A stretch of 31,455 bases of DNA from an uncultured Methanosarcinales archaeon (GTDB taxonomy: Archaea; Nanobdellota; Nanobdellia; Woesearchaeales; JAGVZT01), in the NCBI GenBank assembly GCA_964419615.1, contig CAYQPU010000019.1:1-31455 (forward strand). The letters run 5' to 3'. Numbering within the stretch: the stretch's first letter is position 1; each line of letters begins with the position of its first letter. The notes beneath the pieces are model-generated. The model made no database searches. It worked only from the letters and a program-made list of their open reading frames with translations, and was not told the DNA's origin. This document shows, piece after piece, positions 759-15,574 of the stretch. The translations under genes were made by a program, and so were the position numbers.

Positions 759-766
759 TATATATA
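759..766. promoter_or_regulatory. TATATATA box, possibly bidirectional (gene 479-727 on -, RNA element A on +)
   Basis: TATATATA at 759-766, about 32 nt from the minus-strand ATG at 727 and about 35 nt before the P1 stem at 801. Confidence 0.45.
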
Positions 767-800
767 TTTTTCGGTTGATACCAAGTCAAGTTGTTGGCCA

Positions 801-946
801 TTAGTAGCTCCTCGGCCAACATTGTGAACAAGGCTTAAAACTTGGTAAGAACCAATTCGGAACTGTTTGTCTTTTGTTAACATGCTTTCTCAAGGAATTG
901 ATTATAATCTAACAAACAGCCGAGTGAACTGGCCCAGAGCTACTAA
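801..946 (+). ncRNA. candidate structured ncRNA, copy A (unassigned family)
   Basis: Closing stem TTAGTAGCTC(801-810)/GAGCTACTAA(937-946); GGCCA(814-818)/TGGCC(930-934); CTTGG(841-845)/CCGAG(920-924); CTGTTTGT(863-870)/ACAAACAG(912-919). Shares five conserved blocks with 3389-3536. Confidence 0.65.
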
Positions 947-996
947 CCACTCTTATTTACAATATATTTTTAAACAAAAACCATCTTGATTCATTC

Positions 997-1857
997 ATGA
1001 AAAAGGATTTAGTTGATCAAATATCTGTGTTCTTACTAAAACAAGGATTTACAGTTAAGATACTAAATGCAGGTAGTTTTGATATAATCGCAAGAAAAGA
1101 TCAGGTCTTCCTAATAAAAGCACTATCTGATGCAAACTCATTAGAAGATAACTGGGCACAAGGCATGAGGAAAATTGCTGGATACATAAATGGAGTTCCG
1201 TTAGTAATAGCAGATAAAGCTGGAGAACCGCTTGTTGACAATGTGGTTTACCTCAGATATGGAGTATATACAATTAATCTTCCAACTTTCAAAAGCTGCA
1301 TAAAAAAGAAACTGCCAATAATAAAAAGCACCAGAGCAGGGTACACAGCATGTGTATCTGGAAATGAACTTAGGAAAAAACGTGAGGAAGCAGGTTATTC
1401 AATTAACACTCTTGCCACCAAATTAGGCGTGAGTAAAAAAATGATCCAAAACTATGAAAAAGAGCAGTCAGAAATAACACTAAAAAAAGCTCTTAAGCTG
1501 TATGATATTTTTGGAGACCAAGTATTTGAACATATCAACATATTGGATGCATTTGAAACCAAATCAGATCCAAAATCAGAAATATCCAAAAAATACTATG
1601 AACTTGGATTCAAAGCAACAGACACAAAAAGAGCTCCATTTGATGTAATCGCTAAAAAAAACAATGACATAATCTTAACAGAAATTGGAGACAAAGCAAG
1701 TCCGGATTTATTACCTTGGGCAAGACTATTAGAAGTAAACAAATTAGTAATCTTTAGAAAAAAGAAACCAAAAGACATTCCATCTGTAACAAAACCAGAA
1801 TTCTTAGAACTAGAAAAAGCAAAAGAATTGATAAAGTTTGTAAAAGAGTTTGAGTAG
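997..1857 (+). CDS. conserved archaeal HTH transcriptional regulator (COG1395-like; PD-(D/E)xK-like domains flanking a Cro/XRE HTH)
   Basis: N-terminal FDIIARK...FLIK, central XRE HTH (LRKKREEAGYSINTLATKLGVSKKMIQNYE), second PFDVIAK module; TTTTTAAA box upstream. Confidence 0.85.
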   Translation: MKKDLVDQISVFLLKQGFTVKILNAGSFDIIARKDQVFLIKALSDANSLEDNWAQGMRKIAGYINGVPLVIADKAGEPLVDNVVYLRYGVYTINLPTFKSCIKKKLPIIKSTRAGYTACVSGNELRKKREEAGYSINTLATKLGVSKKMIQNYEKEQSEITLKKALKLYDIFGDQVFEHINILDAFETKSDPKSEISKKYYELGFKATDTKRAPFDVIAKKNNDIILTEIGDKASPDLLPWARLLEVNKLVIFRKKKPKDIPSVTKPEFLELEKAKELIKFVKEFE

Positions 1858-1897
1858 GAAGAATTAATGTATTCTTGTTTATCTATACTATTTGAAT

Positions 1898-2370
1898 TCA
1901 TGCAAAGAATATAATAGTAAGTAAAAGAAGTAAAAAAAACACTAATAACAAAATAATAATATAAATTTTCAATGGATCTGTTCTATCAATATTTCTTTCT
2001 TCTACCTTAAGTTTGGGTTCATTCAAATTCTTAGTTAGTGCATGTTGTAAAATAGTATTAACAAATGAAGGTAATATCATAAGTATGCAAAATATCAACA
2101 AAACACCCATTTTTTTAGAGATGAGATCCTCAAGTTGATCAAAAATAAACTGATCAAATAATTGGTATGAAAGTGTGTAAACCAAAAATGCTAGATATAA
2201 TAATCCTACTGATAATATACAAAAAAAAGAAACCATGACAACCTTTTTTTATTTTCTTTTTTTGCTTTAAGTCGTAAGAACCAAGAATTTCTATCAACAA
2301 TTAAAAACTGAATATATATTGTTATCCAGATTGTAATAAAAGTCAGAATAAGTTCTAGTAGATCTATCAT
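1898..2370 (-). pseudogene. membrane protein interrupted by an apparent 1-nt frameshift in an A8 tract (2221-2228)
   Basis: ATG at 2370 reads MIDLLELILTFITIWITIYIQFLIVDRNSWFLRLKAKKENKKRLSWFLFF then stops early. One extra T in the T8 run joins it to ORF 1898-2236 (CILSVGLLYLAF...), giving a ~157-aa multi-TM protein. Confidence 0.6.
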
Positions 2371-2421
2371 TTTCAATGTACAATTCTTTGAGCTATCATC
2401 TTACATTTGGAGTACACAAGA

Positions 2422-2745
2422 TTAGTACAATATTTTATCCAAATCCCTTTTTGCAGAATATAATCCTCCATCAGAATGTCCCATTAATTCATCGACATCA
2501 TAAACTTGTAAGCTAATTGGAATTCTTGGATTTAATTTTGGATGATCATTTTCAATACTACCACCACCTTTCTCCATCTTTTTAGTTCCAATGGGGTAAG
2601 GTACCCAATCAGGCAGATTGATAATCTTTTTATGATCTAATATTGATAATGTGGTTAGAATACCAATTATTCCATTCGTCGCTAAAGTAGCTATTGACCA
2701 GGCATTTATGTAGTCATCAATGAATTTTGGGTTAAATCCTTCCAT
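2422..2745 (-). CDS. hypothetical protein (107 aa)
   Basis: ORF with a TATA-like tract about 30 nt upstream; no motif recognised. Confidence 0.6.
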   Translation of the reverse strand: MEGFNPKFIDDYINAWSIATLATNGIIGILTTLSILDHKKIINLPDWVPYPIGTKKMEKGGGSIENDHPKLNPRIPISLQVYDVDELMGHSDGGLYSAKRDLDKILY

Positions 2746-2791
2746 ATGTTGTTAAATGGTTTACGGATATTTAATACTTATGCAAAAATGA

Positions 2792-3331
2792 TTAGAATAG
2801 ATCTGTAAACTTTAAACTAGCCAAACTTAAGATTCCAACAGTATCAGAACCATTAATCTCTCCAGACTTAATCCTATCATTTAATTCGCTGACAGGTACT
2901 AAAACAACCTCAATATCCTCTGTTAAATCAAGCTCTTGCTCTGCATTAAATTCAACATCACTTGCCAAAAAACCATAACAAATAGCAGTATCTTTAGATG
3001 GAACAGGAGCAAGGTTTCCAACAGGAATTAAATCATCAACCATGATCCCTGTCTCCTCTTTTAATTCACGAATAGCAGCAGCTTTTGGATCTTGGCCATC
3101 AGTTCGTCCTGCCGGAAGTTCAACTGTAATCTTACCAATTCCGTGTTTATATTGTTTAACAAAAACAACTTCCTTTTTCTTTGTAATAGCAATTACCATA
3201 GCAATATCACCTAGCTTTGAGATGTAATAATCTCCAATAGTTCCATTAGGTAGCTTTACCTTATGAACAAAAAGAGGAAACCATTTACTAGGAGAAATAT
3301 CTTTTTCTTCTAACACTTCCCAACTTTCCAT
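2792..3331 (-). CDS. NUDIX hydrolase, ADP-ribose pyrophosphatase-like
   Basis: Nudix box ELPAG...AAAIRELKEETG, VFVKQYKHG and E.IEV motifs typical of NudF/ADPRase. Confidence 0.9.
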   Translation of the reverse strand: MESWEVLEEKDISPSKWFPLFVHKVKLPNGTIGDYYISKLGDIAMVIAITKKKEVVFVKQYKHGIGKITVELPAGRTDGQDPKAAAIRELKEETGIMVDDLIPVGNLAPVPSKDTAICYGFLASDVEFNAEQELDLTEDIEVVLVPVSELNDRIKSGEINGSDTVGILSLASLKFTDLF

Positions 3332-3388
3332 ATCTAGGTCTGATTTCCTTGAAATTAATAAATCTATTGTTCATTATGCTTAAATTAT

Positions 3389-3536
3389 GTTAACCTGTGC
3401 AGGCCGGTTCCCTCAGCTGTTTGTTAGAGTTGATAGGTGCATAATCCTAACTTGTTTTGCAGATAACAAACAGTTCCTTTCTGCACTTATCATGTACCAA
3501 GCTTCGCTCACATAATCTGGCCAAGCTCAAGTTAAC
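3389..3536 (-). ncRNA. candidate structured ncRNA, copy B (unassigned family)
   Basis: On the minus strand: closing stem GUUAACUUGAGC/GCACAGGUUAAC (11 of 12 pairs, including one U.G), GGCC/GGCC, CUUGG/CUGAG, CUGUUUGUUA/UAACAAACAG. 24/27, 12/12 and 7/7 identity blocks with copy A. Begins 10 nt after the stop of 3546-4100. Confidence 0.65.
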
Positions 3537-3545
3537 TAAATCTAA

Positions 3546-4100
3546 TCACTCTGTGTCATATGTTGCTCTAACAACTCTAGCAAATTCATTCAATCCTTCT
3601 TGTGTGTCAATATGGTAGCTTGATACAACAGATTTATCAACAACACCATCAAGTCTAGGTGCAAACCTATATTCATCATTTTCCTCTAAAAAACCTGACT
3701 CCACAAAACGGTTAAATTGATCTTGCTGCTCTCCATCTGGATCAACAATTATCTTTTTTCCATCAACATCATAATGATCAGCCCACTCAGCAGGAGGAGG
3801 ACAACCACAATGACCAGCAACCCTGATAACCTTTCCATAAGTTTCTGGTTCTCTATCTCCCTTAACTGGGTAAGCTTTATTATGCATCTCATCAGCAACT
3901 TTCACATCCAATCCATCTTCTCCAGCAGAAGCAACCCAGTAGTACCAAGCTCTTGATATAGTCCAAGGTCCAATCTTACCTCTAATTGAATATGGTACTT
4001 CTCCTGAGCTTTGCTCACCTTGTACTGCCTCAATTCCAGCCCAGTCCAATTCTCTTGTAATATATGTGTCAGCCTCTTTAACTCCAGCTAAATTTCTCAT
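3546..4100 (-). CDS. conserved-looking hypothetical protein with RAWYYW, RVAGHCGCPPP and YHIDTQEGL motifs (184 aa)
   Basis: ORF 3546-4127; GGAGG SD precedes the ATG at 4100 (MRNLAG), so the start was moved. The His/Cys motifs suggest metal binding (inference). Confidence 0.8.
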   Translation of the reverse strand: MRNLAGVKEADTYITRELDWAGIEAVQGEQSSGEVPYSIRGKIGPWTISRAWYYWVASAGEDGLDVKVADEMHNKAYPVKGDREPETYGKVIRVAGHCGCPPPAEWADHYDVDGKKIIVDPDGEQQDQFNRFVESGFLEENDEYRFAPRLDGVVDKSVVSSYHIDTQEGLNEFARVVRATYDTE

Positions 4101-4236
4101 TTCTTTCCTCCAAGATGTGTTTTTCATCTTACTTAGTAGGAATAGTTGTATTTAGCTAATACATTTCTAGCAATATTTTGTCTACATAGTTGTACTTTTC
4201 AAAAGATTTATATATAAAATTGCAGATCATATATTT

Positions 4237-5091
4237 ATGGTCATGGATAAGAAAACAGAAGAAAAAATCAAATCAGTAGTCTATCAAAGGCCTAGAAACA
4301 TAAATGAAATAGCTCTCATAATCGGGAAAAACTGGAGAACAGCGGATAGATATGTTGAGCAAATAATGCAAAGAACAGGCTATGTGAAAACAATTACGTT
4401 CAGAGAAGGAACAAGAGGCGCTCTAAAAATAGTATACTGGAACAATGTTGAAAAAATATACTCAACAGATGTTCAAGAAGAACTATTCAAAAGCATTGAA
4501 CTTGGAGTAGAAAAATCTGATTTTTCACCATTTGAAATCTACCAATATGTGGATCCTAACAAAAGAAAAGCTTACTATTAAAAAATCAAAGCAGAACAAG
4601 ATTACAACTATCATGTGCAATCACTAGCACCATACTTTGAGTCAGCTGAAAAAGAAATTAGTATCTTTGCTGGCAACTTATCATTCATACATTTAAAACA
4701 CAATAAGAAAACTATCTTTGATCATATAAAAAAATGTGTTAATAAAAAAATTCACATAAAAATAATCACTGACATCAACCTTGTTGATCTAGATAATATA
4801 GAAAAATGTCTCTCTATAAATGCTGGACTAAAAGAACCCTTACTCAAAATAAGGCACGGAATCACACCACTAAGGGCATACATCTTTGATAACACAATTG
4901 TCAAGCTTGGAGAAATCATGGCAGAATTTAGAAAGCAAGGTCAGATCAAAGAAATAATAGCTGTATATTATGAAATTAGAGAAGAAGCTTGGATTGAGTG
5001 GGTGCAAAAACTCTTCTGGAAAAAATTCCAAAACTCAATACCTTCAAGAAAAAGAATAGATGATTTAAGGACAATATCTAAACTTGGGTAG
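4237..5091 (+). pseudogene. wHTH + TrmB/PLD-like effector-domain regulator split by a single in-frame TAA (4579-4581)
   Basis: ORFs 4237-4581 and 4615-5091 are in the same frame. Read-through gives ...KAYY*KIKAEQDYNYHVQSLAPYF..., an N-terminal HTH (RNINEIALIIGKNWRTADRYV) plus a SAEKEISIFAGNLS/RAYIFD domain. TTTATATA at 4207-4214. Confidence 0.7.
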
Positions 5092-5171
5092 AATAAAAGA
5101 AGATCCTGATTATAAGAAAAAATCTTTGATTAAGTATATTAATACTAATCAATTACATTAATAACAAGAAA

Positions 5172-5618
5172 ATGGGATTTGACTTTGGATATCATATTAA
5201 AAGTATAGCTGTTGGCACTTTAATATATGCAACAATTTTTGGATTAACTATGCTTGGCTTAAGGGCTTGTAATGCTGAAGCTAATACTGGGAGTATAAAT
5301 CACCCAGGCCATCAAACAATATCTTACCCAATCAACACCACAGGGCATGTTGATTATACTAGATTTAGTGATGGAAGTCAGGAAATTTATATCCATCCCA
5401 ATAAAGGAATTCTAGGTTATGCTTTCAAACTGATACAAGATACTAATGGAGATTGTCTTGCAGACAGAATCAGAAAACAAAATCCTTTATGGAAACTTGA
5501 CAGTCTTCAAGAGATTTTGATAAGAGATCAGGATTTAGGATTACATCAGGAAGATTTTGATGAAGCAGATGAACTACTCCAAGAATTAGGACAAGAGTAT
5601 TTTGGAGTATGTTATTAA
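5172..5618 (+). CDS. hypothetical protein with N-terminal membrane anchor/signal
   Basis: Hydrophobic N-terminus (IAVGTLIYATIFGLTMLGL); its stop overlaps the convergent gene's stop in a TTAA palindrome. Confidence 0.7.
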   Translation: MGFDFGYHIKSIAVGTLIYATIFGLTMLGLRACNAEANTGSINHPGHQTISYPINTTGHVDYTRFSDGSQEIYIHPNKGILGYAFKLIQDTNGDCLADRIRKQNPLWKLDSLQEILIRDQDLGLHQEDFDEADELLQELGQEYFGVCY

Positions 5619-6895
5619 TCAATTCTTTTTCCTATTAAGTAAAAAGGTGTAACTTCTTCTATTTTTATTTTGATTAACTTTCCCATCATAGATTCATCAC
5701 CTTCAACAACCACTTGTTTGTATGCAAAATTCCTACCAATAACTGTCCCTTTTTTTCCAATCTCATCAATTATAATCTCACCTTGCCAGTCAATCCATTT
5801 TTTGTTATTTTCCAAGGCTATATCCCAAAACAACTTTGTGATTAAATTTGATCTTTCTTTAACCAAAATTTTGTCTACGTGATCATTCATATTCTGTGCA
5901 GCAGTACCTGGCCTTGCACCAAACCTAGAAATATTAAGGTGATCTGGTTTAATTTCGTTAATCAAATCAAGTGTATCTTCAAACTGTTCATAAGTCTCAG
6001 AGGGAAAACCACAAATAACATCTGTGCTTATTGTAATCTTAGGAATAGTTTTTCTAAACTCATTAACAATCTTCATAAATTCATTTACAGAGTATTTTCT
6101 ATTCATCTTTGTTAAAATATCATTATTACCTGATTGAACTGGGATGTGAATAAACTTGAATAACTTGTCTGATTTGAAAACCTCAATTAATTCATCAAGC
6201 ATAGGTAAGATGTTGTTTGGATTCATCATCCCAACTCTAACAAAAAACTCTCCTGGAATACTCACAATCTTCCTAAGCAAACTTGGAAGTTGTGAAATAT
6301 CATTATTCTCAAGGCCATAAGCTCCATTATCCTGAGAAGTAATCCAAATCTCTTTACACCCTTTATCAACTGCATTTTTAACTTCATTAACAATTTCATG
6401 TTTTGGAAAAAAAAACAATGTTGGCTTTACATGTTTAACAATACAGTATGAACAATTTCCATTACAACCTTCAAGAATCTGAATAATATCAATCACTTTA
6501 TTCTTGTTTAATTTTGGCAAACTAACTTTTATTGCACTCTCTTTGTTAGTATAATTAACAAATTTACCCTTGACTGTTAAATTAACAACCTCAACAATAT
6601 CCTCAATATTATGTGGGCCAATGGCACTCACTTCTGCAGGTAGTTTTAAAACCTGGGGCATGCACCCAGCAACAATTATTTTTTTATTAGGAAATTCACT
6701 TTTGTATTTTCTAACTAGATGATTCATCTTATTATGTGTTGGCTCCTTTACAATACAAGTATTTACAATAATCACATCAGCATTCTCAACAGTATCAACC
6801 AAAATAAAATCTGCTTTTTCCAAGAGACCTGCCATTATCTCAGAATCATTTTGGTTTGCTGAGCAGCCGTATGTGTCAATATAGACTTTAATCAT
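5615..6895 (-). CDS. mtaB: tRNA t6A37 methylthiotransferase, archaeal MiaB-like (e-MtaB/CDKAL1 family) radical SAM enzyme
   Basis: UPF0004 N-domain (TYGCSANQNDSE, NTCIVK, AGCMPQ), CxxxCxxC (CNGNCSYC), RVGMMNP, HIPVQSG, TDVICGFP, C-terminal TRAM domain. Confidence 0.9.
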   Translation of the reverse strand: MIKVYIDTYGCSANQNDSEIMAGLLEKADFILVDTVENADVIIVNTCIVKEPTHNKMNHLVRKYKSEFPNKKIIVAGCMPQVLKLPAEVSAIGPHNIEDIVEVVNLTVKGKFVNYTNKESAIKVSLPKLNKNKVIDIIQILEGCNGNCSYCIVKHVKPTLFFFPKHEIVNEVKNAVDKGCKEIWITSQDNGAYGLENNDISQLPSLLRKIVSIPGEFFVRVGMMNPNNILPMLDELIEVFKSDKLFKFIHIPVQSGNNDILTKMNRKYSVNEFMKIVNEFRKTIPKITISTDVICGFPSETYEQFEDTLDLINEIKPDHLNISRFGARPGTAAQNMNDHVDKILVKERSNLITKLFWDIALENNKKWIDWQGEIIIDEIGKKGTVIGRNFAYKQVVVEGDESMMGKLIKIKIEEVTPFYLIGKRID

Positions 6896-15332: not shown

Positions 15333-15417
15333 AGCCTCTGCCGAGACTTGAACTCGGGACCTTAGCCTTTTTGTGGTAAAATACCAAGGCTACGCACCAC
15401 CACTATGCTACAGAGGC
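15333..15417 (-). tRNA. tRNA-Thr(GGT) with ~13-nt intron at 37/38 (15369-15381)
   Basis: GCCTCTG/CAGAGGC + U73 (archaeal Thr discriminator), D stem GCAT/GTGC, anticodon stem TAGCC/GGCTA, TT-GGT-A|A, T arm CCGAG-TTCAAGT-CTCGG. Confidence 0.9.
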
Positions 15418-15474: not shown

Positions 15475-15574
15475 TTAGAAAAAGCAGAATCAAAAACCGT
15501 ATATAAAGCTTTTTGTTAAATTCATTTTTTACTATACAATAACTTTTTAAATACTTTAATTTTAGCCTATTTTT

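Follow-up and report, generated by a model that had tools for sequence, protein, structure and literature searches.

Two structured repeats in a woesearchaeal genome as probable old copies of a lineage-specific MITE family

The stretch of DNA analysed here (the window, 31,455 nucleotides of contig CAYQPU010000019.1, assembly GCA_964419615.1) belongs to a 1.48-Mb assembly from a DPANN archaeon and contains two related elements of about 147 nt, copy A (801-946, + strand) and copy B (3389-3536, - strand). A first-pass annotation had proposed these as an undescribed DPANN family of noncoding RNA (ncRNA), ribozyme or ribonucleoprotein (RNP) scaffold. It is probable, in our assessment, that A and B are instead old, immobilised copies of a lineage-specific transposable element of the miniature inverted-repeat type (MITE) and do not represent a new class of RNA gene. 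What we describe is a known kind of element, a newly found family of MITEs in a MITE-rich phylum, and not a new ncRNA or ribozyme class. The genome is compared below with its only congener, Ca. Woesearchaeota archaeon SuakinDeep_MAG79_5, a metagenome-assembled genome whose affiliation agrees with the DPANN lineage named in the annotation.

It is in the congener that the hallmarks of transposition are preserved. There the conserved core lies within a unit of ~190 bp that is bounded by GGCAAAGTCAAC...GTTGACTTTGCC and bracketed by perfect 9-bp direct repeats. The sequence GGCAAAGTCAAC occurs 28 times in the congener, as compared to 3 times for a control, in pairs spaced 179-347 bp apart, and a second type of terminal repeat, GGTTGAGTCAAGTTTGATG, is found in subfamilies. 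Six perfect 9-bp duplications mark filled sites (CTATAACTT, CTTTGTAGG, TTATTGAGA, TTTAGAATG, AACATATCA and TGTAAAATA). When the flanks of the congener copies were mapped back onto the present genome to find filled and empty sites, five copies proved to lie opposite empty sites with conserved flanks. The reverse case is provided by the copy at C18:4680 of the present genome, opposite which the congener site is cleanly empty; this copy is flanked by a duplication that matches at 8/9 positions, and its outer segments have the canonical length. The copy at C4:28372 is also absent from the congener, which brings the insertions seen only in the present genome to two. The same core is kept in variants enlarged by roughly 60, 150 and 290 nt of inserted sequence and in sister subfamilies whose terminal repeats are related but different; the arms of these subfamilies differ in sequence yet remain complementary. 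The longer congener variants (L076 2970-3442, L077 3022-3271, L087 and L089) carry additional noncoding sequence, placed within either the 5' internal segment or the loop of the fourth helix; several of them stand at contig ends and are 90-98% identical, which marks them as recently active. Near-identical copies break contigs in this assembly. No consistent open reading frame (ORF) is present, as stop-free stretches vary in strand and frame among copies, and a 470-bp variant is ORF-less as well; with a core of 147 nt, a full unit of 187-191 bp and neither a transposase nor a conserved ORF, the element stays below the limit of about 400 bp usual for MITEs. The terminal repeats, 9-bp duplications, empty sites, size variants and lack of an ORF together are what characterises a MITE.

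In the present genome, copies were collected with a profile built from A and B and one nhmmer iteration over the whole assembly. A and B can be aligned over their entire length, with a 27-nt 3' block that is identical at 24 of 27 positions (89%, BLAST), and the two-copy profile recovers each of them at an E value of about 1e-38 together with 23 further copies, so that their similarity lies far beyond chance and the homology, shared blocks and closing stems reported in the annotation are upheld. The set is closed at 25 copies, 24 of them full-length (~147 nt) and one truncated, with the next match at E>0.08; the copies are distributed over 20 contigs and all 25 are intergenic. Their spacers are divergent in 11 cases, tandem in 12 and convergent in 2. 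Between tandem genes, seven copies have the same orientation as the genes and five the opposite one, so that neither direction is favoured relative to genes. The same counts, along with seven copies that face a convergent gene, led us to reject a cis-regulatory leader of the downstream gene. The family alignment and flank identities reveal no conserved promoter-like sequence upstream of the copies. Among the blocks that the annotation listed as common to A and B, GGCCA, GUGAR and GGAACUGUUUGU stand at the positions claimed; the heptamer CUUGGUA does occur in both copies, but at positions that are not homologous in the 24-copy alignment. The outer stems, which had been described as unrelated in sequence, turn out to be variants of one family consensus, TTAGCTCCACC / GGTGGAGCTAA.

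The annotation had excluded a MITE on the grounds that the terminal repeat sequence was not conserved. That argument fails because the element was drawn about 20 nt too short of its true ends, where the terminal inverted repeats and the 9-bp duplications are situated; in the present genome these have decayed to background. The complete unit would measure about 187-191 bp: a terminal inverted repeat of 12 nt (in the subfamily preserved best, GGCAAAGTCAAC) at either end, then short linkers of 6-9 nt, and the ~147-nt core within. Such a geneless element would be moved, now or formerly, in trans by a transposase, probably of the DDE type since terminal repeats are combined with a fixed 9-bp duplication, and 9 bp of target would be duplicated upon insertion. 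The family appears to have become inactive in the present genome, where the termini and target duplications would have faded to background and left the core alone recognisable.

The relation of old to young copies can be followed at loci shared by the two genomes. At the locus of A, perfect TGTAAAATA repeats in the congener enclose a copy that still has its terminal repeats; it is inserted at the identical point of the conserved flanks, in the opposite orientation. At the loci of C7 and C1:6398, the outer segments in the present genome are decayed homologues of intact congener termini, and vestiges of terminal repeats persist in A (11 of 21 positions of the left outer segment still match the congener terminal repeat), C9 and C24. 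No exact match to GGCAAAGTCAAC exists in the present genome; matches with 1-2 mismatches are all that occur, one of which (GGAAAAGTCAAC) flanks copy C9. The features of A and B that follow from these comparisons and from the fold discussed below are:

765-773 (+): putative remnant of the left 9-bp target-site duplication of A, TATTTTTCG, matching 7/9 of the perfect congener duplication TGTAAAATA, here read TATTTTACA
774-952 (+): presumed full MITE of copy A with its decayed outer segments, the boundaries being suggested by the orthologous congener locus, which has a copy with terminal repeats and the same 9-bp target
801-946 (+): conserved core of copy A, P1 to P1, from alignment and profile matches (covariance model score 121.5 bits)
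801-810 (+): 5' arm of helix P1 of A, partner 937-946 (12-bp family helix, double changes in 12/12 pairs, 89% paired)
814-817 (+): P2 of A, GGCC, partner 931-934 (100% paired; covaries to AGCC/GGCU in the present genome and UGCC/GGCA in the congener)
824-834 (+): 5' strand of P3 of A, GUGAACAAGGC, partner 919/920-929, with tandem G.A pairs inside (pairs 37:140, 38:139 and 41:136 covary; G.A 84 vs U.C 0 in P3)
863-870 (+): 5' strand of P4 of A, CUGUUUGU, partner 912-919 (98% paired; A-U/U-A/C-G exchange at one pair)
871-911 (+): variable loop of A (loop identity among copies 0.39)
953-961 (+): remnant of the right target-site duplication of A, TATTTACAA, which with the flank TATTTACAATATATTTTTAAA equals the congener duplication plus flank bar one missing T
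3389-3536 (-): conserved core of copy B, aligned to A and to the family (covariance model score 118.3 bits)
3525-3536/3389-3399 (-): P1 of B, from the family alignment, as are the next three
3519-3522/3402-3405 (-): P2 of B
3501-3511/3407-3416 (-): P3 of B
3466-3473/3417-3424 (-): P4 of B
3370-3556 (-): tentative full MITE of copy B, 187 bp (the canonical size), with a geometry borrowed from congener copies
3557-3565 and 3361-3369 (-): candidate target duplications of B, CAACATATG / CAATAGATT, a weak 6/9 match

The core is a quasi-palindrome that folds as P1-P2-P3-P4, with tandem G.A pairs confined to one strand. These four helices are backed by RNAalifold and by explicit pair counts: P1 has 12 bp with double changes in every pair, P2 is GGCC/GGCC and P4 is CAGUUUGY/RCAAACUG. 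Over 32 scored pairs in the present genome, 89% of cells are paired and 21 of the 32 pairs show double changes, a level that 0 of 500 shuffles reach, a control that does not correct for relatedness among copies; sliding the partner by 1-3 columns gives 28-40% paired. The congener copies, scored for the same structure, are 85% paired with double changes in 24 of 32 pairs (again 0/500 shuffles). In P3, the 3' segment pairs with GUGA(R)YGAGRC through G-C, U-A, a tandem G.A/A.G and two covarying pairs; beyond these come two positions occupied either by G-C/A-U or by another tandem G.A, and finally a G-C pair. Identities by region among the copies of the present genome are 0.96 for P2, 0.87-0.89 for P4, 0.81 and 0.67 for P3, 0.56 for P1 (yet 89% paired) and 0.39 for the loop, which is nearly constant in length and free in sequence, while the single-stranded blocks GGAAC and GUGA/GAAC are conserved. 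Columns 44-72 of the alignment, within the 5' internal segment, were considered as a small hairpin but give no consensus fold.

Parts of the structure proposed in the annotation are thus borne out, as P1, P2 and the GGAACUGUUUG/CAAACAG hairpin covary by pair counts and shuffles in both genomes. The CUUGG/CCGAG helix that it had offered as P3 pairs in 36% of cells, the same as in shuffles, and the C-to-U change that it had read as a G.U wobble is compensated by a G-to-A change in the true partner strand of P3. Its argument that wobbles fix the RNA strand does not hold for the present genome, because G.U and A.C pairs number 18:15 overall, with 11 vs 13 in P1, whose changes are almost all from one Watson-Crick pair to another; in the congener the ratio is 31:9, among closely related copies. 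Terminal stems form in the folds of both A (z -3.2) and B (z -2.3), and folding is no worse for their reverse complements (z of -3.4 and -3.1). The ratio of G.A to U.C pairs, 89:3 overall and 84:0 within P3, nevertheless favours one strand, and it is the strand the annotation had chosen.

Several observations weigh against the MITE reading of A and B. The outer segments in the present genome, those of A and B included, are at background, with an identity of 0.31-0.32 as compared to 0.30-0.31 for distant flanks, and the target-duplication signal around the copies is only weakly above a mismatched-flank control. Because termini and duplications are this decayed, the MITE status of A and B depends upon homology to congener copies and a few informative loci. 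Searches of the two genomes for DDE_Tnp_1, IS1 and IS256, the transposase families covered, gave no autonomous insertion sequence (IS) whose terminal repeats match. Furthermore, termini and loop have decayed, yet P2 and P4 remain 0.87-0.96 identical and P1 89% paired. The copy at C12:36671 and its congener counterpart at C3:24545, the sole orthologous pair that are mutually closest, are set apart by double changes located in P1 and P3, one of which turns a tandem G.A into U-A/A-U. In the present genome, the fold is kept in place while the parts needed by a transposase are lost. Neutral relics should lose their helices, and the retained helices therefore hint at a selected function beyond that of a MITE.

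The source of the retained fold that we prefer, and to which we would give about even chances by analogy with bcr1, ERIC and Correia elements, is read-through transcription of the element from neighbouring genes, with selection on its fold as RNA. Maintenance at the DNA level is another, with a chance of about one in three, and conversion among copies may be a third. The congener copies at shared loci resemble each other (alpha-alpha, 0.71-0.83) more closely than their positional orthologues (0.43-0.49), a pattern that points to homogenisation or replacement in the congener lineage. Five of about twelve young-looking congener copies (at L047, L063, L239, L077 and L086) occupy the same intergenic sites as old copies of the present genome (A, C24:16710, C7:35319, C1:6398 and C3:32777). 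Orientation relative to the same flanks is reversed at 2 of 7 shared loci, those of A and C42:8868. Young copies at old sites and reversals could reflect a hot spot, gap-repair replacement or inversion in place.

That the fold might be a by-product of processes at the DNA level, with no role for RNA, is possible if doubtful. Sub-terminal arms could co-evolve to fit one transposase, or quasi-palindromes could be re-perfected by template switching, hairpin-directed repair or recombination between arms. The nearly exclusive exchange of Watson-Crick for Watson-Crick pairs in P1 and its lack of a G.U excess are in keeping with such processes, as are the equal folding of both strands and the subfamily arms that differ and remain complementary; so too are the homogenised congener copies at shared loci and the opposite orientation at two orthologous loci, which is what recombination between arms would give. 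They do not account as well for P3, which is no DNA inverted repeat in most copies and has G.A/A.G pairs to the exclusion of U.C (84 vs 0) with covarying flanking pairs, or for the loss from the present genome of the outermost repeats, the very part that is most important to a transposase.

It is unlikely, though worth stating, that the ~147-nt core, having been delivered by a MITE, is now an exapted module that the host selects for its structured, strand-specific RNA in about two dozen promoter spacers. The tandem G.A motifs, the free loop of ~45 nt and purifying selection continuing long after the transposon ends decayed would be its features; its possible roles include an L7Ae-type protein-binding RNA, an insulator or stabiliser of transcripts, or small RNAs with specificity in the loop. 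Such a module would fit the persistence of P2-P4 and of pairing while termini, duplications and loop are at background, the G.A excess (89:3) and the congener wobble excess (31:9), the double changes in place between C12:36671 and C3:24545, and a loop of near-constant length and free sequence. It is opposed by the balance of G.U and A.C in the present genome (18:15), the equal folding of the reverse strand, the absence of upstream promoter-like conservation and of gene-orientation bias, the one-genus range and the free gain and loss of copies between the two species.

The non-mobile, free-standing ncRNA, ribozyme or RNP-scaffold gene family of the first-pass annotation now seems very improbable. 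It would be consistent with the strong covariation, the conserved single-stranded GGAAC and GUGA/GAAC blocks and the lack of an Rfam match, which the check recommended in the annotation confirmed (neither the gathering threshold nor a cut-off of E<=10 places any family on A or B; the window yields only two transfer RNAs, tRNAs). The insertion polymorphisms between the two genomes largely refute it, together with the congener terminal repeats and 9-bp duplications, the insert-bearing variants, the near-identical copies at contig ends and the 25 diverged copies in promoter spacers with no common upstream signal. A covariance model search, also recommended, did find the family in the present genome and in the congener, which has about 35 further matches, but no copy in six other genera of the family and 53 genomes of the order (59 genomes). 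A pattern scan of species-representative genomes lacked specificity and was of use only for naming the congener, through loci of exactly identical sequence. Two pattern scans of metagenome contigs gave 0 matches; a single pattern match in a viral contig was not confirmed by the covariance model. Among the genomes searched the family is restricted to one genus, in which copies are gained and lost. An independent ncRNA gene would be expected to recur in several lineages at syntenic positions and to be free of transposon hallmarks, which is not the pattern seen. An inverton-like cassette, invertible or replaceable under a site-specific recombinase, would explain the reversed copies at the A and C42:8868 loci (at A between the same 9-bp target) but is equally hard to credit, given that reversal affects only 2/7 shared loci, the elements have no linked recombinase, subfamilies differ in their terminal repeats and clean insertions into new sites with target duplications indicate transposition.

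The MITE that we favour lacks, as yet, a partner with the same ends. Matches to DDE_Tnp_1 (PF01609) in the two genomes are fragments with different ends (the terminal repeat of the congener one being GGCTCTGTCCAAAA), one IS1-like fragment was found, and the IS256 search gave no match. At L090 1415-2369 (C58) of the congener is an element of the IS5 family, about 955 bp long, in which 18-nt terminal repeats, GGCTCTGTCCAAAATAGA, enclose a DDE_Tnp_1 gene with an internal TGA; its counterpart in the present genome is a 220-aa chimeric fragment at C2:51060-51455. The IS903 group of IS5 and IS1 produce 9-bp duplications and have GG-initial ends. A 9-bp duplication and a terminal repeat that begins with GGC and contains GT like the IS903 end are thus a lead, and a lead only, to these families; neither genome yielded an intact transposase from them whose ends match.

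ERIC elements of enterobacteria and Correia/NEMIS elements of Neisseria are imperfect palindromes of 100-170 bp that lie in promoter or terminator spacers, are co-transcribed as RNA hairpins and can affect neighbouring genes. Their effects on messenger RNA have been tested experimentally, whereas the family described here is known from its sequence alone and has no sequence similarity to them. With prokaryotic MITEs in general (reviewed in PMC3184786 and PMC10969869), such as SM1-SM4 of Sulfolobus, it shares a size below 200 bp, the lack of an ORF, terminal inverted repeats (clear in the congener), a target duplication of fixed length, numerous copies between genes that are present in one close relative and absent from another, and folding into long stem-loops, which MITEs classically form as RNA (PMC3184786). 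It differs in that no cognate IS was found and that, in the present genome, the termini are gone and what persists is an internal core, asymmetric and with several helices, that contains tandem G.A pairs. Similar in several respects is bcr1 of the Bacillus cereus group, an element of about 155 bp that is transcribed and whose structure is kept by compensatory changes (PMC3184786); non-autonomous mobile behaviour, a non-conserved distribution and flanking direct repeats are further common points (PMC3184786). The direct repeats of bcr1 are of 5 bp, whereas those described here are 9-bp duplications in an archaeal host, evident so far in genome sequences, and the two families have no sequence relationship. 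One Woesearchaea genome is among the archaea of highest MITE density (PMC11602168). The structured RNAs of Rfam (RNase P, SRP, C/D and H/ACA sRNAs, self-cleaving ribozymes and riboswitches) are alike in size and multi-helix fold, but no model matches at E<=10. Archaeal RNAs with K-turns have similar tandem sheared G.A pairs; here the G.A pairs lie within a continuous helix with no 3-nt bulge.

A candidate new class of ribozyme or ncRNA can thereby be struck off and given a concrete identity, and the documentation of a Woesearchaeota MITE family (its ends, target duplication, subfamilies and insertion polymorphisms) should help the annotation and comparison of DPANN genomes. Copies that no longer have what a transposase needs but retain a compensated fold constitute a small natural test of selection at the RNA level against maintenance of palindromes at the DNA level. 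Should the core prove to be exapted, it would be a MITE-borne family of regulatory or RNP-forming RNAs in a DPANN archaeon.

The surroundings of the elements in the window offer some further observations. A TATA-like box of the gene at 997-1857 (+) directly follows the right target-duplication remnant of A; the product of this gene, which lies downstream of A, has 286 aa and an HTH_3 (XRE-type) domain in its centre. One of the five empty sites lies at 15520-15542, where about 21 nt of unrelated spacer separate well-conserved flanks and where the congener has a copy (C40:36478-36632) of the type found in the present genome, without clear terminal repeats. The site is just upstream of a tRNA gene (15333-15417, -) that has a 15-nt insertion in the region of the anticodon loop, presumably an intron; it scores 55 bits in Rfam and ARAGORN names no anticodon. 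A scan of the window for tRNA and transfer-messenger RNA genes gave only the two tRNAs, which are unrelated to the elements. Copy B lies inside a 3.8-kb stretch (1858-5693) that the congener lacks, along with a NUDIX hydrolase gene (2792-3331, -) and several small unassigned ORFs; the congener has about 1.1 kb between the same flanking genes, and the stretch is therefore a variable island. The last three codons and TGA stop (3546-3556) of the upstream ORF 3546-4127 (-) fall within the tentative outer segment of B, the insertion of which, if those boundaries hold, may have re-tailed this ORF.

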